Shown here: positions 27,501 through 56,000 of the stretch, in pieces | How positions within the stretch are numbered: position 1 is the stretch's first letter | Layout: the number at the start of each line of letters is the position of its first letter | Assembly (NCBI RefSeq): GCF_003704095.1 | Contig: NW_020846761.1 | Coordinates: 1 to 64,000, forward strand | Direction: 5' to 3' | DNA: 64,000 nt | Origin: Pocillopora damicornis | Lineage: Eukaryota | Position numbers and translations under genes: made by a program | The notes under the pieces: generated by a model | The model's database searches: none | What the model was told of the DNA's origin: nothing | What the model saw: the letters and a program-made list of their open reading frames with translations, nothing else

Positions 27501-28226
27501 TTCGACCCAGCAAAGAGCGTACAGGATTTCATCTCGGGTCTTCTTTGTGCAAGAAACGAAGCAAAGATGGCAGGCGATGGAGAAAGGTCCGCATTCCTTT
27601 CTGATGACTATCTTGTGAACGATGTTGAGGTCATGTTTGCTGCTGGCTACGAAACTACCAGCACAACCTTAAAATGGGTGATAGCTTACCTAGTTAACCA
27701 TCCAAAGTACCAGGAGGACATTCAACGCCAGTTAGACGAGGTACTTGGTGAGCGGAGTCCTTCCTTGAATGATCGTGCCAGTTTACCTCTAGTGCAGGCA
27801 GCAATCATCGAAACACTGCGACTTGGAAACGTTGGACCTCTTTTACTTCCTCATGTCACCATGACCGATACCACACTATGCGGCTACCGCGTTCCAAAGG
27901 ATACAATTGTCTTTGCTGACACAGAGTCTGTTCATCTGAATCCTAACTGTTGGAAAGATCCCACCAATTTCAATCCTTACCGTCACATCGACAAAAACGG
28001 TCAGCTTATCACTAACCAAAGTAACTTCTTTCCTTTCGGAGCTGGTCGCCGGGTATGCGCTGGGGAAGCCCTTGCTAAAGTGAAACTGTTTTTGTTTGTG
28101 TCTTGGATTCTTCAAAATTTCACTTTTGTTCCTGAAGTAGATGGCCATCCTCCCGAGCTGAGGGGCATATTTAGTATTACTCAGTTTCCCGCTCCCTACA
28201 AGATACGCGCCATACAGCGAAAGTGA
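24533..28226 (+). CDS. Cytochrome P450, CYP2 clan (CYP17-like), ~512 aa, copy A
   Basis: Exons 24533-24741, 26396-26553, 27055-28226; N-terminal anchor plus PPGP, YAGRP, WKFHRK, AAGYETTSTT, ETLR, heme motif FGAGRRVCAG. Confidence 0.95.
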
Positions 28227-30826: not shown

Positions 30827-33800
30827 TCATTGTCGCTTGATGGCACGTATCTTGTAAGCAGAGGGAAATTGAACAAAAGCTCCCTTCGTGTTCACAGGAT
30901 GTCCCTCATCAGCTATAAAAGTAAACTTTTGAAGCATCCACGAGACAAACATGAACAGCTCAACTTTGGCCAGGGCTTCACCTGCACAGACACGGCGGCC
31001 GGCTCCGAAAGGATAGAAGTTGCCTTGATTGGTGATCAACTTGCCATCTTTGTCCAGGTGACGGTAAGGATTGAACACGGTGGGGTCTTCCCAAAATTTT
31101 GGATCCAGATGAATAGACTCCGTGTTGGCAAAGACGATGGTGTCCTTCGGTACACGGTATCCACACAATGTGGTGTCGGTAAGAGTCACATGAGGTAGTG
31201 CAATGGGTAATAAGTTTCCGATCCTTAGGGTTTCCATGACTGTGGCCAGCACGAGCGGCAGACTGGAGCGATCGTGTAAGGAAGGGCTCTTTTCCGCACC
31301 AATTACCTCATCCAACTGGCGCTGAATGTCCTTTTGATGCTCCGGATATCTGACCAAGAGGGCAATAACCCATTTTAGTGTGGTGCTTGTGGTTTCGTAG
31401 CCGCCAACAAACATGTCTTCGATAGTGATGACAAAATGGTCTTCAGACAGCTGAACGTCTCTCATCTCGTCGTCTGGCTCATTTTCGGTTTCGTACTTGG
31501 CACGGAGAAGACCTGAAATCAAGTTTTCTACAGGTTCTGTTGGATCAAATTCTTTTGCGCGCAATCTAAAGATCTTACGGATGATATCGTGTATCTCAAA
31601 CAAGGGCTGCAGAACACGGTCATAAACCTTAAGTGGCAAATAGCGTGCCCATGAGAAGAATTCCAAGATTGTGGCTAATCTGAGATCCTCATCGTTAGCT
31701 ATAAAATCCGCATTCAATTTCAAAAGTCGGTCCAATTCTGGATTGGTCGTGTCTTCACCCTCACCGAACGTTATACCGCATATAACATTAGCCACGCTTC
31801 GCATCAGACAATCTGAGGGATTAAAAGGCTTTCCATTTTGTTCCTCCATGAACTGCACAAGTTTCTCAGCCTGTGTTGCGACTCGCCTTTCTATGAGCGG
31901 GATATCAAGAAGATACTGTCGTAAAGCTGCAGTGAAGAGCTTCCGCTGCTTTTTCCATTGTGGGCCATAGTTACCCATTACGATATCTTTGCCTCCTACA
32001 ATTCAAATGAAACCCAGTTGTTAGGATAACATAATACAAGAGTAATCACAGCTACATTCCACAATTCTGCCAAACGTATGTTTCTATGCTGTGTCTCTGT
32101 GAGATTCCCATGACTNNNNNNNNNNNNNNNNNNNNNNNNNNNNNNNNNNNNNNNNNNNNNNNNNNNNNNNNNNNNNNNNNNNNNNNNNNNNNNNNNNNNN
32201 NNNNNNNNNNNNNNNCTCCCACTTTGGGACAAGTACCCGTGAACGGCCACTCAAAAGATACAAAGACATTTCGAGGCCAACTTAAAAAAGCTGTGACATC
32301 AACATTATCTCTTGAAGAACAGTTAGTTAATTACAACCATCACAGACAAAAGAAAAAGGAAGGAACACGCTGCCCCTCTCCCGGATGCCTATCCCTGCAT
32401 TCTCTGCAGGCAAGTCTTTTCATCCAGGAGTAATCCTCGTGCATATAAGGTCTCACTCGAATACCAGCCATTGACTAACCCGCCTCCTCGTCTCTCCCTA
32501 CAGTCTTTCTTTGTAGTCTCAATAGACAGGATATACCATTATTGACTCAAATTACCCGACCAACATAAAATGTGGGCCAGATAGATAATAACAGCCGAAG
32601 ACGAGAGACATTGCCGTTATGCTGTGGCTCTTGATTGACGATGGCAATCAGACCTAAAGGATGGCTAGTACTTGTACGCATGTAAGATGTAAGATCTCGG
32701 CACGTCTCGACATGTCTCGACACGTCTCGTCACGCTTTGTTACTTCTCGTCACGCAATGTGTTCTCTCGGGGAGAGCTTCTTGGGTGACGTGATCAAACA
32801 AGCTGCAAAAATACACCATTTGCGTACTAATGAAAATATCGCTAACTTTACTGCCTACTAACTTACCTAAGGTTTGTGTATAGAAGGCATAGGTTTGCGG
32901 TCTTCCTGCGTAATCAGCAGATTTTTTTACTAACATTTCATGAACAGCTTCGCGAGAGGATGCCATAACAAACTTGTAACTGCCCATTTTCAAGGAGAAT
33001 ATCGGGCCATAGTTTTTAGTGAGGCTAAAAATTCAACAAAGAAGCCGTTAGGGCCGATAAGTTTTTATTTGGGTGTCAAATGGTTTTGGTTGTAATACAA
33101 GTCGACACAGGTCTGAGTCTGAGGTGGTGTAATTGTTTGCTTGGAATATCTTTTTTAAGGGAAGTACATGAAGCTAATTCAGAATCAACAGGTTAGCTTT
33201 GAAGCTAGGAACCTTAAATGTTCACATACTAAACAATGATTTACGCTGCGTATTATCATTGGAAATACTGATTAGTATGTATAAGATGCATTTCTCATCT
33301 TCACCTTTTTGCTTAGGTCGTTCGAGCAATTCGATTATCATGTCTCCCAGTAGCACTAAATGTGAGTCCACAAGTAAGGATTGATTCGTTCTGGACTCTG
33401 CAAAGGCTTATGCCACCAAAAAAACTAAAAGCGGTCATAAATGTTAGAATTTTCGAGTTGCCCATGAGTATCGTTGCATTAAAATTACTCCAGCTTGGTA
33501 TCATGCATTCTTCTTTATGAGAGGTCAGCCAGAACTGACTTCTACGCCTGTTACTCGTTGGACATCTGCCTGTAGATCATATGGGCTAAAACCGATTGAT
33601 TCCCGAAGCCATACAGCAAAAATAACTTACCTTTTAAAGATGTTTGACAATGTCTCGGCCGAGGGGTCAAGCGACAACAAGTTTCCAAGGACTGGGATAG
33701 TCGTGAAGCGAGGACCTGGAGGCATGTTCCTGAATTCGAACAAAACCATAAAGTAATGTAACATTAAAAGCGAAATAAACAGTAGAAAGACGTTACCAAG

Positions 33801-34740: not shown

Positions 34741-35487
34741 TCAAGCAAAATGAAACTTATTCAAAGCTGGGAATAGTGACGTAACCCAAACCAAAACTAG
34801 ACTTGCACGAGAGACCAATGAACTGCCCTTAGCGTCTTTGTTACTCAGTCGTTTTTTTACCACTTCGTCGTTCTGGTTAGGACTCGTAATATTCATCTTC
34901 AAACAATCGACATCGTTTTCTTTGTAGACAAAAGTCTGGCCCCACTTTCCCTCGCAAAGATCTTTGCCATTGGTGAAGTAAGCGCTGAAGTTCCTGCAAG
35001 GCTGTTTACACGTGTTGACTCCATCGGCGCTGACGTTGAAGTCTGTCAGCCAGTTTCTCCCACAGGTTAGGTCGTATCTGCAAGCATCGTACCACTCATC
35101 ACAAAAACTCGCGCAGATAGGGGCTTTCTTTATTGCTGAAGGAAAATCTGGATTTTCCCAATAGATCGCATCGGGTGAGCACCGGTAGAAACATTCGATC
35201 AAAACCAAAAACGCTTCACATCTGGCGCTCAAGGTGTTGTTACAAGGCGTCCACGAGAAATTGTAGATGCTTTTTACTGGAGGAGGGACCAGTTGTCTGG
35301 TGAAGTCACTCGTGCAGCAGGAATTATTTTTGTATGCTTTACAAGCCAATAAGTTCTCTTCCGCGGACGCATATTTCTTGTGATTGTTACCGGGCAGACA
35401 TCTTTGTCCTATTTCATGTCCGATTGCCGCGTTTGCGATCAAAAGGAGTGAAAAGGCATGAATCAAGAATTTCACAGAAGCGTGCAT
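34741..35487 (-). CDS. Riboflavin-binding protein / folate receptor family protein, intronless, signal peptide plus GPI-type tail (copy 1)
   Basis: Cysteine pattern CLPG..H, SCC, ECFYRCSP, PICASFCDEWYDACRYDLTC, NW, DLCE..WG..F, CL.MN; hydrophobic C-terminus. Confidence 0.92.
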   Translation of the reverse strand: MHASVKFLIHAFSLLLIANAAIGHEIGQRCLPGNNHKKYASAEENLLACKAYKNNSCCTSDFTRQLVPPPVKSIYNFSWTPCNNTLSARCEAFLVLIECFYRCSPDAIYWENPDFPSAIKKAPICASFCDEWYDACRYDLTCGRNWLTDFNVSADGVNTCKQPCRNFSAYFTNGKDLCEGKWGQTFVYKENDVDCLKMNITSPNQNDEVVKKRLSNKDAKGSSLVSRASLVLVWVTSLFPALNKFHFA

Positions 35488-38400
35488 GGTTCTTCAGAGA
35501 GAGTTGAAACACGTGTTTAAACTTATATTTCTCTGACCGTCAAACTCACAAAACCGTGAAATCGAGAATATGAATATTGATTGTCGACACACAAACACCG
35601 CTATTGAATAATAGAAAGAGTTCTAGTGTGACGCAAAAACCATGGAAACAACTGAACGATTTGCCATTAGTCATGATTTTTCTCTGAAAATTGTTGCATC
35701 ATATCTTGATACCGGCCAATTGTTTCATTCAAAATTAATAAATCGAGGTAAATTACAAATGTCAGCTTTACTGTTTGCAGGACATGCTCGATCAGACATC
35801 ATTGTTATTCTTTGAATCTCTGGCACATGCCCTTTCCCATCTTTTCCTTTAAGTTATTACCATTATTTTGATTTGGCTCTCCATTACCCTAATGAACTCT
35901 TGTTTCTGATCAGAACCGCATATTTCTTTCATTGTCCCCGATGTCGTAGACGCTGCCTGGCGACTAAAGAGTCACTGGTTAAATTTTGTCACACACACAC
36001 TAAGTAAATGGAAAGTGTCAGGATAACGCAAACTAGAGCAAAGCCCCGGAATTAAATAATTTGAATCTTTCCCTATCGACTACTATTTGATTTTTGCATA
36101 TCACTGCGGGTGTTAACGTGTGGGTTCATTGACTCTACACTCGTGTCCTACCAGTTTTATAAAAGGCAAGTAGACGCCCAATATCACATGTTAGTCACTA
36201 ATTGCTTGTCAATGGATTACCACTAATAATTTATTCTTTTCTTCAAGTCACTGTGTTAATCATTGAAAATAAAACAAGATTTTCAGTAACACACAACAAC
36301 CGACTTCAACTCCGTTGGCAACATGGAAAAGAAACCGTAATATTCTTTTAAATTTCATGAGTGTGGGGTTCAGACTCCCAAAGAGCTGAGGAAATGAGAC
36401 ATGTTGTAGAAGAGGGCTTTCTCCTACTTTTAACCTAGACTCTCTGAGCACTGAGATCGCATCGCATTTCAACGCGCACATTGAGAGCTAGATATTACTG
36501 CAAAAGATATTGAGATTTTTTTAGTTTGACATCAACTTTATTCTGTTGCCTGCAGAGCAAGCGTAGTTTAAGCGAGGGATTGCTCTGTATTTCCTTAGTG
36601 AAAACTATAACTGCCTTCTTTTACGGCAGCGAAGGGCTGAGGAGAGAGTGAAATTTGTACCAAGAGGGTGAGCGACGGTCAAAAGGAAAGAAAGGGGAGG
36701 GGGTGGGGCAATAGAAATTCCTCTCGACTTCCTCACCCCCTCCACGCACCGTGCATTTTAACTCTTACTCAAACATGCCCGGCCGGATGTAAACGGTCGT
36801 TATTTACGCTTTCTCTCGTTAGTTCCGCCACAGTGCCAACTGATTAACACACATAACAGTGTATTGATAGATACAATTTACAGCTACCTAAACAATTCTT
36901 GTGTAAGTAAACTCTAATATTGAATTAACTGATAACTGAGCAAATAGGTAAAGTTTCAGCGATGCAAAAATTTGTTGAAAGTTTTAGTTGTCTAAAATCG
37001 TTCTCATTTTGACCTCGCAATTTCCATAAGCGGCTACCCTCTATGTTTGCGCATGAACTTTTGGATTTTTCAAAGATCTCTGAAATTAAGTCAGACATCG
37101 ACACTTCATCCTTTGACTTTTTTAATATTGGTGCCTGTCTCGATACCATCCTCGTCTGTACGTTGTGTTTTGGAGAGGCCCGGCAGTCTCCAGGGCATTT
37201 ATTTCCCTTACGAAAAACAACTGCAACAAAAGCACCACCCTCCCTAACTTTGATAAGAAACATGCCGCGCTGAACGTGACAGCTTACCTTGACCATGTCA
37301 CGCTTGTCAATATCCCATAGTGTCAACCATGTTCAGAGGCAGACGTTCGTAAGTGGACACAAAGTTTTCTGTCTACGAGCTAAAAGATCATAGACGTTAT
37401 TGCTGTGTGTTTACTTATATCCACTCCTGGGGGCGTCTACGAAAGTGTTCCTTTACGTTTTCGATAATGGCGTTTACGCATGGTGGAAAGACGCGACGCA
37501 TAAACATATATAGCTACGTTCACGAAACGAAACTTAAACGAGTGAACAAGGCCCTGGCATGCCTACCCTCTGTTACGGCGTGTTTATCAAACGCATTAAC
37601 AGACTGATTTTAAGATATTTGATTGGCGACTTTGTGTTCGACGTATATTGTCACCGAGAGAGGCAGACTGAATGCTGCTCGTTTCAGACCGTGTTACGTT
37701 TGTTGGCTCTATCTCTATACGAACGCTCTACCAAATACAGGAGAGGTGTTAATGAAGAGAGCAGAACAAATTGTCCCAAAAAATCGAAAAATCGCTCAAT
37801 GAAACACACGAAACAAGAGGAGAGAGAGAACTTTATTCATCTGAATGTAACTTAAGTGGAAGATCAAAGTTAACTAAATGAATCTATGAAACATTTCCTA
37901 CGATCACTTGGATTGAGCCGAGTTTAACATTTGTAACACAACAGCGAATAAACACGACAAAAGAGCTGAAATGTATCAAAAGAGATTACGTAACGTCGTC
38001 TCAAGCCTCTTGGGTGGCTGCCTGTCCCATCATCGAGAAACAGGCCTACAATGACCTGGTCACCGACCAACAAAACTTCTTTTCCGGCTTCGGGCTGAAG
38101 CTGCTTCCGCTCTGCAGCTACTTCCGCTCTGCTTGATATATTAGAGACATATGATTGTCTTATGTATGCTTTTATGAGAAATGTTTCGTTCCGCCCTTGA
38201 AAAGGTTATCCACCTAACTAAATAACAAAACATATTTTGTTTCAAATTTTATTCAACAAATAGAATTCTACATGAAACATTTGGGCTAACAGAAATGAAG
38301 ATTACGGTTGCGTAACCTCGAAAAATTTTAGATTTGCCCCGGGTTAGACAAAAATCTGACTTTCATCAAACTCTTCAAGCTACCTAAAAACTATGTCGAC

Positions 38401-38990: not shown

Positions 38991-39701
38991 TTAGTAAATG
39001 AAGGCAATAGTGAACAGCAAAGGAATCCAAAGAGCTGCCAAACTAACAGTGAAAAACAGCGCACCACTCTTTTCAGAGAGCCTTTTCACTAGGTCGTCAT
39101 TCGGGTTTGGGCCCGTGAAATTCATCTGCAGGCAATCGGTTTCCTTGTAGACAAAGCTGGTTCCCCACATGCTCTCGCAAAGGTCCTTACCGTTGGTGAA
39201 GTAATCGCTAAAGTTCTTGCACGGCTTTTTACAAGTGTTCACTCCCGTCTCAGTCTTGTTAAAGTCTGTGATCCAATTTTTAGCACAGGTTAGGTCGTCT
39301 TTGCAAGCGTCGAACCAGCCATTGCAGAAACTTGCGCATACAGGGGCCTTCATGATTGCAGACGGATAATCGGGATTCTTCCAGAAGTACGTGTTGTGTG
39401 AGCAACGGTAAAAACATTCCACCATCACCATGAAAGCTTCACATTTGGGGCTCAAGGTGTTGTTGCACGGTGTCCACGAAAACTTTCCGACTTTCTCGAC
39501 CGGAGAGGTAGCAAGCTGTTTGGTGAAATCACTGGTGCAGCATGATGCATCTTTGTAAGATTTACAAGCCGCCATGCTTTCTTCTCCAGATGGGGATTCC
39601 TTGTGTTTATCACCAGGTAGACATTTTCCATGTCCTTTATGAGCCGCATTGGCGATCATGAAAAGAGAAATAGCCACAACCAAAACAGTTACAGTATTCA
39701 T
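38991..39701 (-). CDS. Riboflavin-binding protein / folate receptor family protein, intronless, signal peptide plus GPI-type tail (copy 2)
   Basis: ECFYRCSH, PVCASFCNGWFDACKDDLTCAKNW, DLCESMWGTSF, CLQMN; TATA-like element (plus-strand tttata) at about 39758-39766. Confidence 0.93.
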   Translation of the reverse strand: MNTVTVLVVAISLFMIANAAHKGHGKCLPGDKHKESPSGEESMAACKSYKDASCCTSDFTKQLATSPVEKVGKFSWTPCNNTLSPKCEAFMVMVECFYRCSHNTYFWKNPDYPSAIMKAPVCASFCNGWFDACKDDLTCAKNWITDFNKTETGVNTCKKPCKNFSDYFTNGKDLCESMWGTSFVYKETDCLQMNFTGPNPNDDLVKRLSEKSGALFFTVSLAALWIPLLFTIAFIY

Positions 39702-41193
39702 GGTTTCCTTGATCTTCGAAACGAATCGACTTCTGTCTCACTTCAAAATAAATTCAGCTTTATAAACCTTGTGTCATATGAATGATTACGTAACAATATC
39801 TGCCAACACGCATGCGAGCTGTCAGAATGTCTGTCGGACACAATCAAGTGACCTCTCACCCAGGACCAGAGTCGAAACGGGAGACAATTTTATTTGACGT
39901 TTTTATTTTAGTGTTTTCTATTTCTGATGAAATAGATGTTGGTAAAACTTGCCAGCTTTAGAGTTAAAAAGGCGGATTGTATCATTTTTGTGCTCTTGGA
40001 AAAAATGGATCCCATCCAAGGTGAGCTGAAGCAGCAAACCGAACTCTACTGAGACTGTAGCAACCCTCGTCGTCGGCGACGCCAACGGGGACATCTCGAG
40101 ACAAAAGATTTAATTTAGAACATTAGCTCTGCGCGTATGAAAATCTTTTACCCATTCTCGCCGTCTTTTGCAAAACAAGAACGTCATAGTACCAGATTCA
40201 GCCTATTCTGAGAACGGGAATGCCAAAAGAAAATTGTTAACTATCCTCTAGAACAGGTAATTCCTTCGCTTTTTTTTATCTCAAGTTTGGATCGGGCGCT
40301 AAACGACAACGGAGATAAATATATTGCATTACTTGAAACATTCTCAACGACTAGTGGCTGCACACGTGCGTTTTAAACTTTGAACATTTCTGAGCCCTCC
40401 TCTGCAAAACATCAAAGTGCAGTTTGACCTTGTTGGTTTTTTTTTTGTTTTTTGTTTTTTTTGTTTTGGTCCAGAAGGTGAAAAACAATCGACATTAAGT
40501 TGCTCAACATGCAGCAACAAGTCTGTCTTCTCAAATTCATCTGAGGAAAGCTGCCCGCCCATAGCAAAACTTTAATACAAGTAAAAGCTTATTTTATTTT
40601 TGCTAAGGTTTTCTAGTGTCGGAAATAGAGTGGTTTTTGGCAAACTGGAAAAAAAACGCTTCTATGATAGGAAATCTCTTGATTTCATGTTACTTTAACG
40701 GTAATTGTCTGCGGGGTATATACAATGACGAAAGGCAGACAAAGATGACAGGACTTTTCCTGTCTTCAATTTATAACAAGCATTAGTGATAAAGGTCTTC
40801 ACGTTAATATTAAAGCGCTAAGACTCAGCGCAACGCGTAAACATCTCCCGCAAAGCCGATAAAAATGTAGTTACTACAAAAGAAGGAAAAGAAACTGGAC
40901 GACGAAACAACTTTTCGCTTTATATCTCCTTCTGGCAACTTACAGTGTTCGCCCTGTGGCGATCCCAGAAATCTTGGCGTAAACAAAAGGATCCAACTAC
41001 TGGGAACTCATCAATTTACCATTTGTTCACAAAACATGATCACATCACATCTAAGAAAGCCGAAGACATCGCAGACATGTTGATTTAATAACTGTTTTGT
41101 TCCATGACACGCCAGGTGCCACCATGACGTTCGATTTGAGCAGGCCCTTATTATTGGCTCTTCAGTAAGAGTGTTTCTTCGCCCGCGAACATG

Positions 41194-41405: not shown

Positions 41406-44201
41406 GGCCTTGAGTAACGCGACCCGTTGAGAGATCTGCAAGAGGTCGTCTGTACTGATAATTAGTGCCAGACTCCCGGCAGACCTCTCCATGACTCTTC
41501 TCAGATCTGGCCACAGGCGTAGAAATGCTCGCCGTCTGGCAGCACTAATGCAGAGGGTCTACTCTTAGACCAGCCTTTAAACGTAGAGGTGTTTCTAGTA
41601 AGTTCGAAGCCTTCCTCTTCACAAATCTTGCCACAAAGTTCCATCGCCCAAAGACGAACCCATGCCTATATGGTTATTTGGTTGTCCATAGTGAGGGGTG
41701 CGGCAAACAGCGAAGTTTTTTCTTTGCTATTAGGAAAAGTTTTGATAAAGCATCTATAGAGTATTGCAATCATGTTTTCTTTATTTCATATTGCTGCATC
41801 TGATCTAGAAGAGACTCGTTGCCCATGCGTGTGGGGAATAAGGTGAGTATGGGTGAAGAGGAGGCTACACCACATGGAAGAAAACTTCACTCATTAACAA
41901 TACCTCCATTTGTGATATCAATGGTTACAATTAATACAAAAAAAAAAATGATCTTTTTTTTAAAAAAAAAAATGGCATCAGAACTGGAAGCTCTCTATCT
42001 TCAGCTCTGGCGAAGAAAGAAATAACCCATAAAGTTGGAAACCGCAAAATTTTAAGCAAAAGACTCATTTTTAACAGATCAGCAACTTGTCAGAAATCAG
42101 AAATTCGACTCCTCTTCCTCCTCCCCTCCCCTCGCTCTGGAGAAAAAAAACTGGGTCAAATTTCCTTTGCTTATTTGGGTTATGTCGCAAACATCTGGCC
42201 AAAATACCGTGAAAGAAGGTGGAAATATGACGGATATTCCTTGAAATAACAACCACAGAGAAATGGGAGTAAACGCATTCTTGGTTTTGAGAACAGGTAC
42301 CAAAAAGTCACCCTCCACTCATAAGTTATTCATTGGTTGTGAACCGCCAGTTGAAAGGCTCACTATTCGCCAACATCTGGCGATCATTACGGGAAAAAAA
42401 GCAGGATAAGCTCAAAAAGAAGGGAATATTGAAAAGAAAACGAAATTATATTCTAGTTTAGAACAGAGGAGCGACGATTCAACGAAGGGATCATAGAATT
42501 AGATTGGAAATGAATTGTATTTGGTGGAAAGAACACTAACTTTGAAAGGTAAGTTATGGATTCGATTTTACAACTTTACAACCTTGGGAAAGGAAAAGGC
42601 AAATTATTTTAGACAGGTTGAATTCCTATTTTGCTGATAATTTTGGCAAGGGGAGAAGAGTGTGATGCTTAAGCTTCGACCTATCGAAGAAATGGGAAGA
42701 TTGATCAAATACAAAGTTTGGTGGTCAATACAAAACATGGTAGGGCACTTAGAAAAGAAATCCTTTTTGGTGTCTTGATTTTGAAATCGTTTGAGGCTGG
42801 AAGTTTGAAAGCGAAAATAGTACTGATTTGGCTATGAAATACTTATTAGCAAAAAATAATTCAAGCCGGAATCGACGAAAGTTCAAATTTGTCAGTATTT
42901 TTAAATTTAGAAATCAGCTACAGGTCTTTTCATCCAATGATCTCCATTTTGCTGGTACTGCAGACTGACACTAAATAAACATCTGGTGATTTCTGATTTT
43001 TTTTTTCCTACAATCTTTTTTATTTGCGACAAGTGATTTCCAGCAAGATTTCTTACCAACTTCGCGAGTATGTCCAGAGTAGCCTTCTAATGAAGGATTA
43101 AACATCAATATTTGATACGATACAAAATAAACGTTGTACTGTTTTATTTTGGAACGTAAATCACGTTTTGGTGAATTAGTCTCGTTTGGAGTAAGTTACT
43201 GCAGTCGTCAGCAACGACGTATACCAAAACCATTGCTTTATAGCGCTTAAAAGAGCTAAAATCTAAAGAAAGAGAAAAACAATTTTCCGATGAGAATTTT
43301 TTCATCACACCCTTAAACAGAAGAGAGACTGGTCCCTTTCAAGAAATCGCAGTTATTCCCCGAATTTAATCGATGGCTGTCTTAGTTAAGAAGACTCAAA
43401 ATCCAAGCCCTAAAGATCTCCAAGGAAAACAAGTTTCCCGTGATCTGTAACAACATTGTTTCTTTACATGCATATCGCGTAAAATCGATTTGTGGTTTAA
43501 CTCCTTTGAACCAGACACACAAGGTATAAAACTAACAGGTTTTCCATACGTTTTCCATGTGCTCCACTCTTAAAACGTTTGCATTGATCTGGAATCGAAT
43601 AATTTTTAAACGTCGAACATCCTACAAATGCTTTAGTGAAATCTTTTTCAACGGTATAGACATCAGTTACGCAGTATAAAAACAGAGTTTAAAAAAAATT
43701 GCCAATATATAGCTATTAACACACGCCTTTGTTTACCTTTGGGAAGCGCAGCGACTCTGAAGTTCGAGTCCAGGCCTTGTCCTTGCGTTACGTTCTCGGG
43801 AGAGACAATTTACTCTCAAAGTGTCTCCGTCTCCCCTCAGAAGTAAATATATAAATGCCAGTGAAGTTCCATGGAAGCCAGACGAAATGTTTGGGGTTAC
43901 TCAACTAGCATATTACACTGAACAATTAAGAAGGAGCTTTTTTACCCATAGCTGCTTCACGCTAACATAAACTTAGATAAGCTTCGGCAACTACGTTGGT
44001 CAATCTTATACACGGTTGTCTATTTGGAAATTTTGAAAAGAAAACAGTAATAAAATAATCTTCCACAACAGCGAAAAAAAACCAATAAATAAATCTTAGA
44101 ATCTTAAGAATCTTAAAAAAATACTTCACACGTCTAACTCAACAATTTGTGATATATCTGCCTCAGGAAACCCGAGTTGGCAAATACGAAGGACTTCGAT
44201 C

Positions 44202-47200
44202 ATGAAGATTACCATAGCCTTGATATTGCTAATTACGGCCAATTTCATACGAGGTAAGTTTCGTAAAGAGCGAGTAAAACGCTGAAAAAATCCGTGCGAA
44301 ATGGTAAACGTCGCGTTTAGTCACTTACCCAGACCTTCCAGTTACATTTACGAGACGTTTAGTTAATACCCAAACCTCCCTCGTTTTTTCACTACTCCGC
44401 TACCGTCAAGACGTTTACTATCGCGTTTCCTTTAGCTTACTAAACATTTGTGTCCAGGCGATACCGTTTTTAATTTCTTGCTTAACGTATGCAACTGGAG
44501 ACTGAGAATAACATCAATGATCCGCGAAAAAGCAGCAAAGTTTGATGTGAGGAACAAAATGTATAGAAGCAAATTGAAGAGTCTATGTTTTCATTGGGGA
44601 AAAGAATCTCGAACGCCAATCTTATCAGGCCTCAAATGAATCAGTTTATTTTTAGATAAATAGTTTTCTGCGCCTCTAGATAAAAACCTAACCACTTTCT
44701 CTCCGTGTTATAATCAATTCAAGGTCTTCCGGTTGATCGGGAACTTTTACGAGTCAAAAGAAAAGGAGAGGGAGAGATTGACAACAACGAAGAGACTTTC
44801 CATAGAGTGCGAAGATCACAAGACGACTTAGAAAGTGAAATTAGACGTAAAAGACGATTCTTTGCCCCGAACACACCGACACAAGAGACCGAGGACAGTT
44901 ATAAAACAAAAATGGAAGCTAGATCGTCTCGTTCATCCCGTGAGGATAGGGACATCACGGCAAAACGACCCGAGAGATTTCGTCTCCGAATTAGAAAAAG
45001 AAGCCAGGACGGAAGTTCCATACTCCGCGGCGATACTCCCGGCTCCGGTTCTCTGCCAGGATCGGGTTCTTCCGGGGCAGGGTTGTGGATGGGACCACTG
45101 TTAGAAAAAAAGAACGATAAACGAAGCGCAGGTTCAAACTCGCTGGATAATCTTATAGCTACGTTACGAGCGATCAGTTCTCTAAGTCCTGATGAAGATG
45201 ACAATTCGGCGGAAGAAGTCAGATCCTCTGGTTCAGGTCTGTGGATTGCGCCTGAAAGTACAGTTGATAATAAACTGCCACAGTTTTTTCAGGAGGAGGC
45301 AAACTCTGGTAGCGGTGAAAACCCGGAGAAAGCTTTAAGGCTGCTGAGTGAAACAGCCCAGAGAGAGTTAAACCAAAAAGCAAATGAAGTTGGCAGTGGT
45401 GCGGAGCAGAGAGTACAAAATGATGACAAAAAGGAAACCGAGCAGCAGACTGGCGAGAGACTTTTTAGACGAGAAATAGAGAGCGACGCGCCTGCAGATG
45501 ATTTAATTGCTGCTAATGAGAATCAGGATAAAAGAGGCGACTCTGAACAGGAAGACAATCCAGCCTCATCTTCAGGATCCGCTGATGATTGGCAAGAAAT
45601 CGAAGATAAGATTTCAGAACAACCAGATGAAAAAGTTACGCGGTCGCTAACAGAAGCCTTACTTCCAGACGCGTATTACCGCACAAAGAGGTCATCTCAA
45701 GAAAATGCGTTTCTGGTTTCAGACCACAGTCTCGGTGAAAATGACGCCCTTATTGGCGATAGCCTCGTGGCGCGGTTTTACCGCGATCAAGACGCAGTTT
45801 CCGATGACGTCACAGAAACTTCGATGACATCCCTTCCTAGCGAGACCCAGTCCCTTTCAAGTCCCGAAACCCAAGAAAAACCTGTAAAACGAGAACTGGA
45901 AAATCATAACTTTAGAGACTTCTCAGAGCCAAGGGTTGTGTACACAAGGCAGATTAGAGAAGCTCGAGAACCTATCATAGAAAGACCTGCCGTTTACTCA
46001 CAAATCGAAGACGAGAGTAAGATGGATTCCAGCTTCGGAGGCGAAGACGATGACGACGACGAACCAACTTTAACGATTCATGAAAGAGAGATTAGAGAAG
46101 ACGGTAGGATCAACAGTCTTCCTTCAAGTTTTACCTCAAAAAGTACATTAAGTTCAAAGTAAATCATATCAGTCGGTCACAGTATGGTAATCTGGTCGAG
46201 ATAGTATATTTTGTCAGCCAATCTTCTTTCAGTATAACAGCAACATCTATAAATTAGAGAGCTTCTCGATCTCAAAGATATAGAAATGGTTTTGCAGTTT
46301 TCTAATTTTAGTGGAGATGGAAATTGAAGTGAGTTATTGATAGCACAGTTTCACTATTTAAGCAACATGCAATCTGATGTTTGTTTACAGTAAGCTGGGC
46401 TGTTAACTTTTAAGAACAAAACGTTATTTTCTGCCCGTCGCATGAGGCGATTTCAGTTTTTTATTTTCCTCATTCGTTCCATAGAATTCGTTTAATCAGC
46501 ATGAATCTGTAGACTCAAGGATTTCAGTTTCAAAATTTTTAACAGCTAACAGAAAATGTAACCATTTCCAATTGCTAGGATATGTCGGCTGTTACGAGGA
46601 CAAGGCTCCCGACCGAGATCTTCCCTCCATAGTCTCAGTTCCCAAACTGACTCCAGACTCATGTCGTAGTGCATGCCGGACAGCAGGTCACGCTTATGCT
46701 GGAGTGCAGTATGGGTATTTGTGCAGGTGTGGCGATTCGTACGGGAAGTACACAAAGGTTTCAGACGAAGAATGTAATACTCACTGTACTGGAGATCATG
46801 CTCAGAAATGTGGAGGATTCTGGAGAAGTGCAATATTCACGACTGGTAAGTTGGAGCTCTCTGATCTTTAAACGACACTTGTAAAAGTTTGTCCTCAAGG
46901 ACTGCCAGTGAAGGAAACAGTCTCGAATCATTTATCATACAATTCGTGTAGACATTTATTTCGTGCGATGACTTAGAGGCAACCGACAAAGGAGGGAAAA
47001 ATTCTCTCAAATCAATAAGCAAAATTATTCCTATCCTATCCAAAGAGGTAAAGGCCTAGCTTTGACCAGCAAAGCGTACTTATGTCTATGACCAGATTTA
47101 TAGCATTGTTTAATTTTTCATTTATATTGCGAAAAATCAGTAATTAAGATTTTATGACGTTGTAATTCTTTTTTCCTTCCACAGCCGGAGCAATGGAACC

Positions 47201-50200
47201 CACAAAGCGTGGAAACTTCTTTCACATTGAAAGTGTTCGGCCTATGACAGAAGAAGGTGCATACTTTTCAGTGTCACAGTATTTCACATACGCAATCGCT
47301 CGGTTAGGATGTACAGCGCTTTTCGAATGAGTGTCGCAAAACCAAAACCAAAGTAATTACAACAGTCAATCTCAGAGAAGAGAAGAAAATATCCTGAACA
47401 ATCAATTAAAGCCCAATGTAAAAACAAAAAACCTTCTAAAGTGCGGGAAAACACGGGCGACTAAGTGGTGATTGGTTTTAACCCTTTACACCCTAACATG
47501 AGTTTGCATATTCTCCATACTGTTCATTATACATTTCTCAAGATGCAAACAAGGAGAATTTGTTCAACGATCAAAAGCTTCTTTAGTTGGTGATCATTTC
47601 CTTTATTCTTGTAACCTCTATGTGTGATTCAGGGGAGATATTGCAAGGAGAAATTAGATGCTAGTCACTCTTAAGGGTGAAAAGGTTAACGGCGTAATTT
47701 GGTTTTGTCGAATTAGTTGATAACGTAAATTGGCCTCCGTGAAGAGTTTCAAAGCAGACGTTTCGAGCGTTAGCCTTTCGTCAAAGCGAATGATTGGTTT
47801 AAGTTTTGCATCCGATTGGTTGAGAGATTTGCTTTGCGTGATTTTTCCGGACCAATCTCAGAGCGAAGAAAAGGAAATCCAATGCAATTCCGGATTTCTT
47901 TCCATGCTTTACTGAAAACGGTTCTGATGATAATTCTTCTTTGTTTAGATCTTTTTGACATTCCGCGCAGCGACATCGCTTCTGGTGGTGAAGCAGAGGC
48001 AGAGGAACATCAGCAACCAATAATCACAGAAACCTTTCACTTGACAGCTTCAGAATCCCCTGCGACTGAAGTAACGGCAGCTGAAGTGGTAACTACCCCA
48101 CTCGAGTCGTCTGGTAATTATGTGCAGGAGATACACAGAGAACCATCTCTCCAAGAATCCCCTGTGCAATCACTTCCCATAGAGACAGCCCAGGAAGACA
48201 ATTCTTTAAACACGCATGCGTCAGGCGAAGAGCACCCACATGAGAAAGCAGACTCTACGCATGCTACAGTATCTGCTTCTACAGTTGAGCCCGATTCTGC
48301 GCATGCTGCAGATATCTTACCTGCGATCGCAATTTCTGAAGCTCCTCCTCAAGCTTTGACCCAATCTGAACCCAAACCATCCTCCGGTTCGCCTGCAATA
48401 GCTACTCAACCGGTACCGAGTGTGGTTCATCCTCAACACAATGAAACGCCACAGGGTACCCACGGGAGTCGACTGATTTACTTGCATCAGCAACAGGATA
48501 TTTTGTCAAAACCAACTCCAAAAACTATCGTGGCAGTGGCTCCGGGAAAGCTCAAGGAAGGAAGTAAGTTGCTGAAATTTTCATACCATCATATATTCCT
48601 CTAGTTTAGATAATTATAGTGAACTTTTGCCAAGAAGAGTTGTGTTTTACCCTAGGCCATGTCTTAACTTGAAAATCATAATTTTTTTTATTCAAATACT
48701 TTATATTTTAGCTGTCGTCTACACGGGAACAATCAAGCTTAAACAAAGCTGGCTGGACCAGTTTGAAGATGCCAAAAGCGCAGAGTCAAAAATATTAACA
48801 GGAAATATCGAGCAAGCGGTATGTGGTTAAGAAATCATAGCAAAACATTTAAATCGCAAAAATGCCTAACAAACTGGTGCAACGAGTATCTGTTAAAAAG
48901 TACACGAAAAACTGTCTATTTTTATTTCATTCTGATAATTGTGTAAACTTTTCATCCTTTGTAAACCAATAGAGTATGTGCTTTTGTACGTTTAACTGAA
49001 AAAATTTACTAAACAACAAATTTTGTTTGACAGTTCAAGCGTGTGTTCAAGAATGATCCAAAATTTGTCAAGGCCGAGGTTGTAGGATTAAGGTAAGGAC
49101 TTTTCCAGGAATCACCGAATATTATGTACGATTCGCATTTTCCAACGTTGCCCTATTAGTTTAATAGTTAAAGATTCGCAATTACTTTAACAAGAATTCC
49201 TTCATGGGTGTTCCCTTGTCAATTTAGAAGAAAATCCCAACCTTTACCTTAGCAAATTCCCCCAAAACCTGATGTGCTGTTTGTAGGTTTGTGGGTATAT
49301 ATGTGAACTTAATTGACCACTTCATGGGCTTTTCAGGGCCAATACGAATAAATCAATAAATGGGTGACTGAAAAAAAAAAGTGTTTTAAAATATAAAGCA
49401 CAGTCAAGGCGTTGAACTCGGGGAAACCGGGAAAAATCCCAATGAGTTGCAGGGTGGAGAGCTTGAACCCAGGACCATATGAATACAAGCCTAACATCAA
49501 AACCACTAAGCTACACGGCCTGGTTAATGAATAAGGAGACCTTTTCGGGCAAAAGTCTACGAAGACCAAATTGTTTTTGTTGATGCAGATGACTTAACAA
49601 GAACTATATAGTGCGTAAAGAAATTCTGCGGCAACAAGAAGCACTTTGTACAATTTTCATGATTTGCTTCAATAACGAAATCTCCAGAATAACTCAGTCT
49701 TAAAATTCTATGTTTCTCAAGGGAAGGCCTCGTGAAACACAACCCGAACACCATACGTAAGGTGATTGCACCGTTCATTTTGACGTTCAAGAACGGCATC
49801 CAAGGCATCGAGGAGAAACTAAAGAACATGGTACAGAATGTGGGGAAACTTGATGATATGCCTGTGTATAAACATTCACTCCAATTGTCAGGTGAGGTGA
49901 AGATTTAGGAATAGATAGCGATACGAGAAAGGAAAGTTCACTTAGACACAGACTTAGAATAACTGTGAAGTCGGCCGAGTGGGTGCAGAACCCAAAAAGG
50001 CTAATTAACACGCAGTTTGCTCCCAGTCAGGAGACTGCTGACGAGCTAGGCTACGAAGATACGATTACGTGGCTAAAGTATTTTTAGACCTTAGTGATTA
50101 AAGATTTTTTCTGGCTACGCCATGACACTTACTGCTCGTTGCAGACTTTATCTCACACGTCCACTGAACGATTACATTATGGCTTATTGCACCGTATTTA

Positions 50201-51212
50201 ACTTGTCTCGTGGAAGGAGATCGGTGAAAAAAAATTCAAGTTTCAAACATAAATGTATAAATTGCTGTATTTTTTATTATGTCCTTTCTTCTTTATTTAT
50301 TAATCTAAAGTATTAACTCATTTGCGTGTTAATTATTTTACAGAATATAGTCATTCACCAGCTGTAGGAAAAGCACCGGAAACAATGGACGAGGCAAGCA
50401 AAGTGGACCTCGTTGAGGAGGATAAGAAGCGGAGTACTGTCAATATTCCAAGTAAGAAATCACTCTCAAAACAGAAATTCTCATGGCGCTTTTCAATTGA
50501 GTGTCGTAAAACCAAAATTAAAGTTGTAACAACGGCCAATCAGAAGAAGGAACATACCATTAAGACCTAATGAGAATTCAGAGTAAAACCGACCAATCTG
50601 CCTAAAGCGCGGGAAAACGCGGGCGACCAAGTCGTGATTGGTTTGAGTATTGCATCTGATTGGTTGAGAGAATGGCATGAGTTTTCTGGACCAATCAAAG
50701 CGCGAAGTAAAGCAAAAACAAAGCAATCCCAGATCACTTTGGACACTCAATTGAAAATTTTTCTACATAACGGGAATTCGATTCTCTACATAACGGGAAT
50801 TCGAAGCCAACGCGAAAACAGTACAGCTAACTGTTCTTAACTAATTTCGGGTATTCGTTTCAAGAAAAAAATACTAGGTCTTCACTTGCTACAGTCGTTT
50901 GCAAAAAAATCGCTCCCTCAGTCTGCAGCTTTGCTAGGGGACAATTAACACTTCCCAAAACATTGCCAACAAGGAAAAAAATTCACGAAATAAATTAAAC
51001 TGACAGAATGAATGACCTCAAGGGGGCTATCTACAACACTCCACCCGAGGGAAGAGCTTTACATGTAGTCGAAACCCGCCGTCTGAAACAGAATGCAGAA
51101 AGACGTTTCTGAACAACCACATGGAATTAGACTTAATTCACCTCGTCCTTCTTTTTCAGACGGTGGAGTTGATCCTTTCCTTAAAGGAATATTTAGACAG
51201 ATTTCGGCGTGA
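44202..51212 (+). CDS. Secreted ~971-aa acidic Ser-Gly-rich pro-protein with WSC and SEA domains
   Basis: Coding exons 44202-44253, 44724-46103, 46546-46845, 47185-47256, 47949-48563, 48712-48818, 49034-49092, 49722-49891, 50344-50451, 51160-51212, all in phase. Signal peptide MKITIALILLITANFIRG; WSC motif YVGCYED...YAGVQYGYLCRCG...C...C.G....CGG; SEA-like segment VVYTGTIKL...SLQLS; probable 5'UTR exon donor at about 42549. Confidence 0.85.
47320..47920. mobile_element. Nested repeats: CCAATCA-family element interrupted by a piggyBac-like MITE (47478-47689) and a Penelope-like fragment (47690-47790)
   Basis: tgattggttt duplicated at 47469 and 47791; TTAA at both MITE ends. Confidence 0.7.
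50490..50760. mobile_element. Near full-length CCAATCA-family MITE
   Basis: ttttcaattgagtgtc ... gacactcaattgaaaa inverted termini. Confidence 0.8.
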
Positions 51213-53036
51213 GCTCTAGTTTAGGTTTCACTATTTCAGGTAAGATCTGTCATCCACGTCGTGAAAAAAAAAATAATAAAGTGTATGCTGTAACGGTACT
51301 TGACACAACCAAAATAAATTGATATATCAAAACATACGAATAAACAGACAAAATGCAAATAGTTCGTCTGTGAAACTTTCAAGTTTGTCAGTTTTTGCAA
51401 CGGAAATATCATGATTACTATAAAACTGACATGCTTCTCTTTACTGATCCTAGAGAAACCATACACCTTACAGCTTTTTCTAATGAAAGACTTCTTCGGA
51501 AAGAAAAAAAGAAACTCACAATCATTTAGGGAATAAAGAGACAAGCCGAGTGAATTGAAAAAGATCTACAGTCGCCTCAATTAATAATCAGTTGAAACTG
51601 TTGACGCCGGTCGCACCAATATAGCGTTATTAGCAGTAGAGTACACCTAAAGTATCTGAGCTAAATATTTTTAACCAATAGACAACTTTTCAAAATGGCA
51701 TAATTTGTTTAGTCAACACAAAGCGCACCAAAGAAATAATCTTTAGGTTTTATTATTAGTAGAAAAGATCGCGAGATATCAGATTTCAACGTTTAGTTTC
51801 CGGAGTTTCGAAGATCGCGGATATGCTCCACGCATTCAGTTAATAAATCGGAGCGAAATAGTAAACAGTGCGATAGGAGCGGAAACGAAGGAGGCTTGGA
51901 TCGAGTCGCGTTCACTTCGTGGCCCGACCCAAACCCGCTCTTCGTGTAGTAAAATTTAATTATCTGACAGGAAGTATCTAAGAAAAGTGCTGCAAGTATA
52001 AAGTGCACTATGAGAAAAAGTTGTATGCTCTTTTTGTTTCAAAAATTAATCATCAATTGTAATGGGGCTAAATCCCGAAAGCCTAAAGAAATTTGTCTTT
52101 TTACTTTCATGAATGATATTTGATTTTCTATTAATCAAGTAAACGTAAATAAAATTTATTTTTCCCAGTAAGTCATTTTGTCTCCTTTCCTCATGTAACT
52201 GGAACGCCAAAATAGCCACAACAATGGTACTAAGCTCTTTCGTCCGCGATCAACATTTTTGCGAGCCTGCGAGCAAGCCCTCATTATTTCGGCTTGAGGA
52301 CGAGCTTTTGTGCGCCTGCGTTGGAGTGTGAGGCCCTAAGCAACGAACGCCGGCGAGGTGCCAGCGTAGGGTCTAGCGTAGATCATTAGTGCCAGACCCC
52401 CACCACACCCTTTCCGACTCGTCTCAAATCTTCCTGCGGATGAAGAAAAGCGAGTCCTGCGGCGCAAATAATATTGAGGGCCTGCTCCACTATTTCCAAA
52501 CGCCGCCCCAAAGCCACTGGAATTATATTACGCCTGCTATTTACATGTCATTCCTCCAACAGAAAAATCTTAAGAACAGAAACTCGACAAAAACGATATC
52601 TAGTATCTTGCGTTTTAAACATCCTGTACAAAACGTATAGTTTATACACCCAGGAATATCAAGAATCAAGTACATCTACGTATAATGTAAAATGCGCTCA
52701 AATAATGAAAAACAACCAAAGTAACACAGGAATTGGTTTAAACTACGCCACAGACATGACAAAGGAAGTGGTAAGAGTAACCACGCGCTCTAATTTAACC
52801 ATAAGAGTCATAAAGGGATTAACAGCGTAAGTTTCAACAGAAATAAGTTACATAGTTAAGAATGTCTCCAATAGTTACCAGTTATGATAACGTGATATCT
52901 AAAGAAATCATTACAACGAAAGAGTAACAACTTACTAAAAGCAAGAAATCGGGATCTGCCGTTAAAACAATCGACCAATTCTATAACCCTGGCTTTCGCC
53001 TTACGAATTTAATAAGAATATCTTTTGAATTCACCA

Positions 53037-56000
53037 TTATGTCCTTGGGTCTGTCAGAAAACACAAGCACATGTGATCTTTTCCCAGCAGTAGGAGAATG
53101 TTGCCATCAGGATGAAACTGTAAGGATGTGATCTGGAAAGTGGCTGAAATGAAGCCAGAAGGAAACACATGAAATCAAGACTATGAAATCGCACTGGGAA
53201 TTGGGTGTGCACACTGATTTAGCAACGATTCTCTTGTGGTATACATACCTTTCTGGAGAAACCTTTCAAAGACCAATACCAGATAAACAAAAGTAATAAT
53301 GTAAACTTCGTTTCCGCATAACGAGTAAGCTGAACACAAACATGCCATAGTTTACGTATGTTAAATTTTACGAGCTACACAAACTTAATTGATCGTACAA
53401 GTGTCCTTCTGACAAAAATTAAAATTCAGTGAAATTTTTTTCCAAGTTTTCCATTTCCAATCTTTTTAAACAGTTTCTTTCTTTAAATGTCCGAATTTCT
53501 TTTTGGTTTATTCTTGTTCTATCCCAGTCAATTGGTAGCAATTTTCAACGTCCAAACACACCATTCAACACGAGGCAATATTCAATTGAGAGCCGAAAGT
53601 AATTCAGGATTGCATTGGTTTTGCTTTTTCGCTCTATGATTGATCCAGAAAACTCGTGCCACGTTCTCAACCAATCAGATGCCACTGAAACCACTCACGA
53701 CTTAGTCGCGCGCGTTTTCCCGCGCTTTAAGTAATTTGGTTGTTTTCACCGTAAGTTCTCATTCGCCGTTGAAAGTCTTTCCGTTCTTCAAGTTGGCAGT
53801 TGTGATAGCTTTTGTTTCGGTTTCACGAAAAGCGCTTAATCATGGTCATAACAAAACTAGGAACCAAATGAGGAACAACAAACCTTCTGTAGGTACGACT
53901 ACCGACACGCAGCCTGCAGGCGACCAAATGTACAGCTTGTTATTTCCGGTACAGACGGCTAGCCGGGGTTGTTTTGGATCCCACTGGAAAGCTAAGACAA
54001 AAGAAGAAAAAATGAAATAATAATGGAATAATAAATCTCTTATTCGATTGCTTGAACATATATACTCGCGGCTATTTTGTAAGCTGCTTGTGTGTTTACT
54101 CTTCCCTACGGAGCTCAGAAAAATACGAAGCAGCTCGCACAATATCCGCGCGTATTACTAGTTAAACTATGAACTAAGGTGTATCAACTGACCTCTCACG
54201 GAACTGGTCTGCAGTAGCAATGCTGTAAGACATAACTTGGACACATCCCATAACCAAAGAGCATTAGGCATGTTGTCTATGTACAATAAAAACGAAAGAA
54301 AGAAAGACATGTTAGTTAGAGCAAATGCGGTTTGAAAGCAATCTTTAATTGGAAAAGTCGTAAACAATCCAGCATTGCTTTGATTTTGCGTTGTGATTTC
54401 TTCAGAAAACTGGCGGCTCGGTCACTAACGTTTTTTCCCGCGCTTCAGGCTGCTTGTTTTTAATTCAAGTTCACATTGGCTCCTGCTGACATTTTCCTGG
54501 CTCTGATTGGCTGTTGTGATTGCTTTGGTCACTTGCGTTTTTCCGCGCTATGAGCAGTTTCTTGTTTTTTTCTATTCGCACGGACAGGTACTGGTAAAAA
54601 TTATACGTTATTTACCAAAGAAGTAAAACCTTAGTGACTGCCACTAACCATTCTTAGTTGCTAAATATCTGTTGTCTTGACTAAAGGCCACATGTCCAAC
54701 ACCAAGTTTGGGGTTTGCCTTTTCTGGGTCAGGTTTAAGCGTCGGAACCTGGACTGGGCCTGGCTGAACCTCATCTGCAAAGAAATAATTAAGAAATAGA
54801 TTCCATGTTTCCGCGCGTCTGTTTAGAGATACAGAGGCTTGACTTGAGCATTCACATAAGGGAAGAGAATTACTCACGCGATAAAATACAATCCACTTTA
54901 ACTAATTAACTGAATAGCAGATTATTAGGGCGAATTATACCTGAATGATCAACTTCGTATTTTTCCCGTCGCAAGAACGCATTCAAGAATCGTTAAGTCC
55001 GGCGAAGTACAAATTTCTTAGCGATCGCAGTGGTGTGAAAGAATACCCGCATATGCGTGAAGCGAACGACGAAGATGAATTAAAATACCCACATTCACGT
55101 GTAAACCATTGCATTTGCGTAACTACACCCACCGGAGACGCATGGGGTTGTTGCAGTACACGAGAGCGGTACTGTAGATCACAGATGGCGTCAAAATGTG
55201 GTAGGAGCGACATCGTGTCTCTAAACACATTGTGACGTCTCGGTGATCCTTTTAACAGCAATCGCACTGTAAAAATATTAAAAACTCACATTTACTCTGC
55301 ACCGTAAACCCGCCAGGCGGCATGATCTCTCCTTTTAGCAAAGGTGGCTTCAGCTCCACTTCTCTGTAAACAATCTAAGAAATTCAGGAAACAAATTAAT
55401 ATAAACTTTTTATAAGATGACCAATCAGAGCTTCAATTTTTTTCAAAGTTACCATCCTACAACCTAAAATCATGAGATGATCAATCCAGGATAAAATTTT
55501 GATCGCCAAGATACGCTCTATATTACATAACGCTGTCAAAACCACTTATTTTTTGAGTGAGCAGTGTAGTTGGCATCCATTGTGGATATTCACTCAACTT
55601 CCCAAGGCTTAACACTCCAGCAACAAAGGAAGTAGAGCCATTTTTCGAAGAAAAAGAGTTTGCGCAATGCATTCCCGGGTGCCCTCCTGCTCCAAGCCTC
55701 AAGGAAACCCTATATAAGGATTGTAAACTCCATTCTTTATAGTTCATGCTCTTTAAGCGAACACTTAATTTGACGTCATGGAAAGATTAAGGCAACTCTA
55801 GAGGAATTGTGCATGTAGTCCTTATCTAGTTCATCGTAACAAGAAGCTTTATTACCACTGACGGAGAATCCACCGTGTGACTATGGTTGTGTTCTGCGAC
55901 AATTTTCCACGTGACGTGGTTCAACACGCGACACTGCAACAGAGCAGCAAAGTTTTTTTAAAAGGCTTTTATAACTGCTGTGTGGAGTAACCGTGTTGTC

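Follow-up and report, generated by a model that had tools for sequence, protein, structure and literature searches.

A gene on the plus strand of the coral Pocillopora damicornis, running from position 44202 to 51212 of a 64,000-nucleotide stretch (assembly GCF_003704095.1, contig NW_020846761.1, positions 1 to 64,000; hereafter the window), belongs to an expressed, old cnidarian gene family with an undescribed architecture. It encodes a signal peptide, a long acidic region with basic cleavage sites and candidate glycosaminoglycan (GAG) sites, a WSC domain, a linker, a SEA domain and one of two tail peptides (A or B), between which there is a conserved splice switch. Our leading reading, held at a little short of even confidence, is that the product is a soluble, acidic, granin-like prohormone proteoglycan, located in vesicles for regulated secretion by cnidarian neurons or gland cells, although its sequence does not place it among the granins.

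Ten exons with GT-AG introns join in frame from the ATG at 44202 to the TGA at 51212 and give a protein of 960 amino acids (aa). RNA support was taken from poly(A)/cDNA contigs of four studies (four runs), which we compared with the gene and which support its splicing. A single RNA contig of ~3020 nucleotides (nt), found in two of the four runs, carries exons 2, 3, 5 and 8 in order, with gaps that fit exons 4, 6 and 7; ~240 nt precede exon 2, and the ~110 nt after exon 8 match exon 9 in size. Searching the genome with exon 8, the SEA exon, returned one place only. The first nine exons are as follows.

44202-44253, plus strand: exon 1, signal peptide (residues 1-18), hydropathy peak 1.94; RNA cover of the bin 44107-44413 in 4/4 runs
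44724-46103, plus strand: exon 2 (1380 bp), acidic, Cys-free and predicted disordered, with basic sites, Ser-Gly (SG) clusters and conserved motifs; RNA contigs in 4/4 runs
46579-46845, plus strand: exon 3, WSC domain (Pfam PF01822, E 1.1e-20), with R-X-X-R upstream in hexacorals and KR in the jellyfish and P0181
47185-47256, plus strand: exon 4, coral-only TKR site and conserved aromatic motif, from sequence comparison
47949-48563, plus strand: exon 5, poorly conserved linker rich in S, T, P, E and H, with a conserved YLHQ/YLHPQ motif at its end
48712-48818, 49034-49092 and 49722-49891, plus strand: exons 6-8, SEA domain with a conserved loop insertion and without the self-cleavage motif
50344-50451, plus strand: exon 9, variable spacer and a KKR site (50424-50432) preceding the tail

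An earlier, sequence-only reading of this DNA had described a signal peptide followed by a Cys-free acidic region in a single 1380-bp exon, and the exon join bears this out, with hydropathy as the basis for the signal peptide. All 8 cysteines of the 960-aa model lie inside the WSC domain.

The same order of parts was found in four corals (Stylophora [LOC111345783], Oculina, Orbicella, and Montipora), in the anemones Actinia, Exaiptasia (LOC110236030), and Actinostola (the last a partial model), in the jellyfish Sanderia malayensis, and in further records such as the distant homolog P0181. Exon 2 of P. damicornis is 85% identical to that of Stylophora. The Sanderia protein (P0053) is without a clear signal peptide, and its start may be mis-predicted; it shares the WSC domain, the YLHPQ motif, the SEA insertion and tail B. 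All homologs of named species are cnidarian. This apparent restriction to Cnidaria is an observation on homologs with species names among the matches listed: the profile search covered the best 150 of 6293 matches, crowded by multi-WSC proteins, with weak SEA-only relatives outside its view.

The orthologs carry database names that are either "uncharacterized" or low-complexity artefacts, and the labels xylosyltransferase, KAT6A-like and uro-adherence factor are misleading. The UniRef label "Xylosyltransferase oxt" on the Stylophora ortholog most likely stems from the WSC match alone. We rejected a xylosyltransferase identity, as only WSC and SEA were found and no catalytic domain; a genuine Xylo_C gene lies on another contig. 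Searches of main texts in the literature (supplementary tables being outside their scope) found no description of the gene by its domain pair together with cnidarian terms, by ortholog accession or by peptide string. Among the matches listed, five of six peptide strings had no occurrence and the sixth occurred in unrelated papers only. The sequence-only reading likewise knew of no characterized protein with this architecture. The gene may well be listed in the supplements of single-cell atlases, peptidomes, matrisome studies, and skeletal proteomes.

The tail of the protein is encoded by one of two alternative last exons:

51160-51212, plus strand: last exon A (960-aa form), short tail predicted to form an amphipathic helix (helix moment 0.71); annotated isoform in Stylophora, Oculina, Orbicella and Montipora
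51454-51536, plus strand: last exon B (970-aa form), PYTLQLFLMKD peptide and then G-KKKR; annotated isoform in those four corals, and also the tail found in two anemones and the jellyfish

The end of the gene had been placed at 51212. That model was incomplete, and the alternative conserved tail peptide was overlooked, as was the paralog described below. The acceptor of exon B is the AG at 51453, and the 970-aa form ends with KR, a 24-residue peptide, G, and KKKR. Long RNA contigs of P. damicornis end where exon 9 ends. Among the matches listed, intron-side contigs have ends at 51189 (two runs) and 51481 (two runs), each lying roughly one assembly word beyond the corresponding acceptor; contigs starting at 51452-51454 came from three of the four runs. 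These observations fit the use of both acceptors in P. damicornis; the evidence consists of contig ends, splice joints having been crowded out by the intron repeats. In two related coral transcripts tail A is spliced and exon B lies inside the 3' untranslated region (UTR), which points to a choice between two acceptors. RNA cover beyond 51536 was left out as UTR evidence because a minus-strand gene ends near 53040.

The core of tail B is 64 to 71% identical to that of anemones and 50% to that of the jellyfish, and the spacer that precedes it 8 to 12%. In a region-by-region comparison, the conservation of this core was on a par with that of WSC and SEA, and tail B lies between basic sites in all seven species. 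P0181 ends with KKKR and then a tail-A-like peptide; given this end and tail B in the jellyfish, both tails look old. Both had a predicted local distance difference test (pLDDT) score of <50 in two AlphaFold models with shallow alignment, where tail A is a low-confidence helix.

Intron 9 (50452-51159) also had RNA contig cover in 4/4 runs. A read-through form would have 982 aa and a basic tail entering a repeat, and this RNA is more likely unspliced RNA than a third isoform. The dispersed repeats of introns 4 and 9 (~47478-47690 and 50486-50700) had very high summed RNA contig depth from other loci.

No transmembrane (TM) segment or glycosylphosphatidylinositol (GPI)-like tail was found by hydropathy in the 960-aa model or in 12 homologous proteins, as the sequence-only reading had proposed. 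In all 17 sequences scanned with a 19-residue Kyte-Doolittle window, no hydrophobic stretch exceeded 1.1 past the signal region, and the maximum hydropathy of the last 60 residues was ≤0.42. A further TM exon was rejected, since each of the two last exons contains an in-frame stop and hydrophobic tails are absent from all orthologs.

The protein is acidic (pI 4.95 to 5.05). D/E makes up 22% of its N-terminal part (18 to 21% in anemones), which is predicted to be disordered apart from three short helices in the AlphaFold model of the Stylophora ortholog. Three exon 2 motifs (residues 79-97, 363-372, and 418-478) are 51 to 90% identical to anemones and belong to no known family. The convertase-site array that had been proposed is present in full (nine sites in exon 2, TKR after WSC, and KKR after SEA) and exceeds chance. 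Against 5000 shuffles of residues 18-477, R-X-K/R-R occurred 5 times versus 0.6 (p 0.0002) and K/R-R 12 times versus 6.5 (p 0.014). Among 21 N-terminal regions, which are related sequences and hence not independent, R-X-K/R-R was enriched over shuffles (p <0.05) in 18 and KR in 14.

We examined conservation in an alignment of 10 coral-type, 7 anemone-type, and 3 other sequences, grouped in part by similarity, in which a motif was scored as kept if it lay ≤2 residues away. Corals and anemones have basic sites at 29-30, 58-62, 936, and 962 in common, and the first two of these are furin-type:

44750-44761, plus strand: furin-type site RVKR (residues 27-30), kept in 9/10 coral-type and 6/6 anemone-type sequences
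44843-44857, plus strand: furin-type site RRKRR (residues 58-62), kept in 10/10 coral-type and 6/6 anemone-type sequences

Anemones carry basic sites of their own at other positions. Six hexacorals carry R-X-X-R directly before the WSC domain, where Sanderia and P0181 have KR. The KR after WSC (the TKR site) is found in corals only, so that the proposed release of a free WSC and a separate SEA module has a cleavage site in corals but not beyond them. In all eight proteins, the regions outside the domains contain more plain K/R-R sites than furin-type sites (for instance, 11 versus 3 in Stylophora and 27 versus 5 in Sanderia), and 36 of 68 plain sites are followed by S, E, or D, against a background of 34%. 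Plain dibasic sites are what granule convertases usually cut.

The number of SG dipeptides, given earlier as about 13, is exactly 13 in the 960-aa form. Nine lie in residues 18-477, versus 3.1 in shuffles (p 0.0014). Their acidic context holds for 8 of the 13, which have at least three D/E within 8 residues, but not for the first cluster (125-134). The clusters conserved from corals to anemones are as follows.

45044-45076, plus strand: SG cluster 1 (residues 125-135), conserved, with little acidic context in P. damicornis; SG125 in 10/10 coral-type and 6/7 anemone-type sequences
45227-45238, plus strand: SG cluster 2, SGSG at residues 186-189, candidate GAG site; 10/10 and 7/7
45305-45316, plus strand: SG cluster 3, SGSG at residues 212-215, candidate GAG site; 10/10 and 7/7

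Dipeptides 186/188 and 212/214 were kept in 17/17 aligned sequences, SG 125 in 16/17, and SG 134 in 15/17. SG 242 and 301 are coral-only or nearly so, and none of the four linker sites occurs in anemones. Ortholog alignment, the check put forward with the sequence-only reading, therefore retains three SG clusters and three basic sites from corals to anemones, while the linker SG sites and DKR-287 (the latter in 0/10 other coral-type sequences) are not kept. DIASGGEAE and ASGEE, which had been offered as examples of GAG attachment, are both absent from anemones. In 20 of the 21 N-terminal regions, anemones included, SG exceeded its shuffled count (p ≤0.01). The conserved clusters sit on only two predicted fragments (111-151 and 152-267), and the several GAG-bearing peptides proposed earlier are thereby reduced to these two as conserved candidates.

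Both folded domains named by the sequence-only reading were recovered, WSC by Pfam (E 1e-20; E 5e-12 to Kremen1) and SEA by Pfam in orthologs and by a fold match. SEA was above the Pfam cut-off in the Stylophora ortholog and matched in 5/5 orthologs. In the AlphaFold model of the Stylophora ortholog, SEA is confident (~795-912), WSC is partly confident, and the remainder is disordered. The fold search used SEA only, because WSC was partly confident in both AlphaFold models, and its best matches were the SEA domains of MUC16 (Z 14.0, root mean square deviation [rmsd] 2.1 over 114 residues). An Atlas search with the SEA region returned MUC16-type SEA clusters only, under 0.9. The linker is 9 to 10% identical to that of anemones, and the YLHQ/YLHPQ motif is 30 to 60% identical to anemones and 40% to the jellyfish. 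SEA domains of the MUC1 type carry a GSVVV-type self-cleavage motif in the beta2-beta3 turn. A self-cleaving SEA was rejected here, as that motif is found in 0/8 proteins and the loop carries the conserved insertion; any release of SEA would thus depend on convertases. Across the full-length proteins, WSC and SEA were the only Pfam domains, with no kringle, CUB, TM, or glycosyltransferase segment.

The closest other WSC domain in the P. damicornis genome (51%) belongs to a gene at G000:C4151 (~320,200-336,250; L029 and L030), and relatives of this paralog are found in three transcripts (L016, L017, and L018) of ~1240 aa. Its parts run from a signal peptide and an acidic KR region through a Q/P-rich stretch with paired Cys, then SEA and WSC, to an acidic region with [DE]SG and KR and a long C-terminal region. 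Compared with the gene in the window, WSC is 47% and SEA 27% identical, and the first pro-peptide is alike. The paralog has no TM segment, a pI of 5.1, 16 KR versus 5.9 expected, and 6 [DE]SG versus 1.0 expected. In a WSC tree built from 75 of 173 distinct domains over 90 columns, with a bootstrap that did not converge, the gene clusters with the jellyfish protein and the paralog at 83/92, on a branch that is not starred, which gives no more than moderate support for grouping gene and paralog; the tree assigns the jellyfish protein to neither of the two genes. That this design recurs with its domains reversed suggests that selection keeps polyanion, basic sites, WSC, and SEA together.

Under the granin-like reading, xylosyltransferase would add GAG chains to the three conserved SG clusters in the Golgi, and furin would cut at RVKR and RRKRR and remove the first short peptides. 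The polyanionic chain would then aid the condensation of vesicle cargo, and the plain KR/RR sites would be cut in the maturing vesicle by PC1/3- or PC2-type enzymes. Release would set free acidic fragments carrying GAG chains, together with one tail peptide and the WSC and SEA modules, these last as a single piece in anemones and perhaps as two in corals. The choice of 3' splice acceptor would set that tail as either a likely amphipathic helix (A) or a conserved hydrophobic peptide (B), the latter amidated in corals. We favor regulated secretion because plain KR/RR sites outnumber furin-type sites in 8/8 proteins, S, E, or D is favored after them, a conserved peptide lies between basic sites, and corals carry an amidation signal. 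The genome has matches to a convertase P-domain, a xylosyltransferase, and a copper monooxygenase. Prohormones can carry chondroitin sulfate, according to PMC8434799.

Several results weigh against this reading. The copper monooxygenase matches are weak exon pieces unassigned to PAM, and the convertase matches carry no assignment to PC1/3 or PC2. Granins do not typically contain folded WSC and SEA domains, which are characteristic of surface and matrix proteins, and Pfam found no family over the cut-off, granins included, in exon 2 and 8 homologous N-terminal parts; an Atlas search with the N-terminal part gave no usable match. Basic sites 47, 109, 339, and 406 occur in 10/10 coral-type and 0/6-7 anemone-type sequences, and the amidation glycine before the final basic run, present in four corals and P. 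damicornis, is missing from two anemones and the jellyfish. In P0181, SG is not enriched (3 versus 1.7, p 0.25). Cell type, vesicle localization, peptide release, and glycan are all predictions from sequence.

A constitutively secreted proteoglycan of matrix, mucus, or glycocalyx, trimmed by Golgi furin, holding water through its GAG chains and linking glycans through WSC and SEA in the manner of IMPG1 or perlecan domain I, is a possible reading, if a somewhat unlikely one. SEA beside GAG sites occurs in secreted proteoglycans, and here SEA folds like that of MUC16, the linker is rich in S, T, and P, the SG clusters are fully kept, and the best-kept basic sites of the N-terminal part are furin-type. 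Many plain KR sites would, however, fragment a scaffold, and the confinement of Cys to WSC leaves no mucin-type polymerization; the conserved tail between basic sites would require a separate explanation. The main text of the Nematostella matrisome paper (PMC12549020) does not contain the term "WSC domain". We consider a cnidocyst matrix protein, possibly a nematocyst chondroitin core, improbable, even though the cnidocyst is a specialized secretory vesicle with KR-processed proteins. Nematocysts contain chondroitin and KR-processed capsule proteins, and a cnidocyst role is in keeping with the cnidarian identity of all homologs of named species, the GAG-type and KR sites, and the Q/P-rich stretch with paired Cys in the paralog. 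Capsule proteins, however, tend to form families, whereas the SEA exon search indicates a single copy, and the protein has no cysteine-rich capsule domain or collagen repeat, its 8 Cys all being in WSC.

There is a slim chance that most of the basic and SG motifs arise as by-products of disorder in an R/S-rich region, in which case the protein would be secreted largely intact and act through WSC, SEA, and short linear motifs, and tail B would serve structure or sorting and not be a released peptide. The best-conserved N-terminal motifs (79-97, 363-372, and 418-478) lack the flanking pairs of basic sites usual in prohormones, and many sites shift between lineages, which also counts against the granin-like reading. 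Against such a by-product stand the excess over shuffles seen in most homologs, the preference for S, E, or D following the sites, and the recurrence of the design in the paralog. The sequence-only reading had also suggested skeletal organic matrix, in which acidic fragments would control aragonite growth. The protein is acidic, secreted, and disordered as such a role would have it, but the same architecture occurs in three anemones and a jellyfish, all without skeletons, and D/E makes up only ~22% of the N-terminal part, near the 18 to 21% of anemones. We regard this role as very unlikely for the coral protein, and it is unlikely as an ancestral one.

Among known systems, the granins (chromogranin A/B and secretogranin II) and prohormone proteoglycans resemble the protein in signal peptide, acidic pI, disorder, many dibasic sites, candidate GAG sites, and candidate released peptides; they differ in that there is no sequence match, that the gene carries folded WSC and SEA domains and alternative tail exons, and that its vesicle localization is only predicted. 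Granin features for this comparison were drawn from PMC8311481, PMC2289203, and PMC8434799. Cnidarian neuropeptide preprohormones have in common with it a signal peptide, acidic spacers, KR sites, one G-KKKR amidation signal in corals, and the conserved, flanked tail B; its predicted fragments, however, are without repeated peptides, it has two folded domains, and the glycine is not kept outside corals. Nematocyst capsule proteins (minicollagen and NOWA) have cysteine-rich domains or collagen repeats that this gene is without.

Secreted SEA proteoglycans (IMPG1/SPACR, perlecan domain I, and agrin) and SEA mucins (MUC1 and MUC16) have the SEA fold (Z 13-14 to MUC16), an S/T/P linker, and SG sites in common with the gene, which differs in having no GSVVV-type motif (8/8), a conserved loop insertion, no TM segment, a convertase-site array, and a WSC partner. 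IMPG1 and perlecan were compared by their generally known features. The lumenal domain of IA-2/phogrin (PTPRN/PTPRN2), a dense-core vesicle protein, combines a disordered pro-region, a convertase site, and a SEA-like domain, whereas the gene encodes neither a TM segment nor a phosphatase domain. The 50 fold matches listed for SEA included no IA-2 structure, which is still compatible with a distant link. Membrane mucins and IA-2/phogrin have a TM segment after SEA, and this gene family has none (17/17 sequences). With WSC proteins (Kremen1 and the UniRef "Xylosyltransferase oxt"), the gene has WSC in common but no kringle, CUB, TM, or glycosyltransferase domain.

More speculatively, and with low confidence, the gene and its domain-swapped paralog may be cnidarian counterparts of granins of independent origin, forming a GAG-bearing dense-core vesicle matrix, with the last-exon switch providing tail B as an unrecognized signaling peptide kept since the coral/jellyfish split. 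To our knowledge, the agent that packs and condenses vesicle peptide cargo in early-branching animals is not settled, and only a few core proteins of cnidarian proteoglycans have names; a search of titles and the starts of abstracts found none naming a cnidarian proteoglycan core protein of this kind. The gene and its paralog supply two specific candidates, and the precisely predicted GAG sites and fragments of the family, together with its conserved tail peptide, can be checked in existing anemone single-cell, peptidome, and matrisome data.

The window also contains the following features:

27030-28226, plus strand, and 30827-32002, minus strand: two cytochrome P450 open frames of ~390 aa, intronless over that length, facing each other
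34741-35493 and 38991-39737, minus strand: two tandem single-frame folate receptor family genes, each with a hydrophobic tail
~53037-54780, minus strand: last exons of a gene with a weak WD40 match (E 0.02)
4437-4778, plus strand: open frame with tandem 9-residue basic repeats

The minus-strand gene at ~53037-54780 presumably resembles WRAP73, and its 3' UTR may overlap that of the WSC and SEA gene. The open frame at 4437-4778 may be a tandem DNA repeat rather than a gene.

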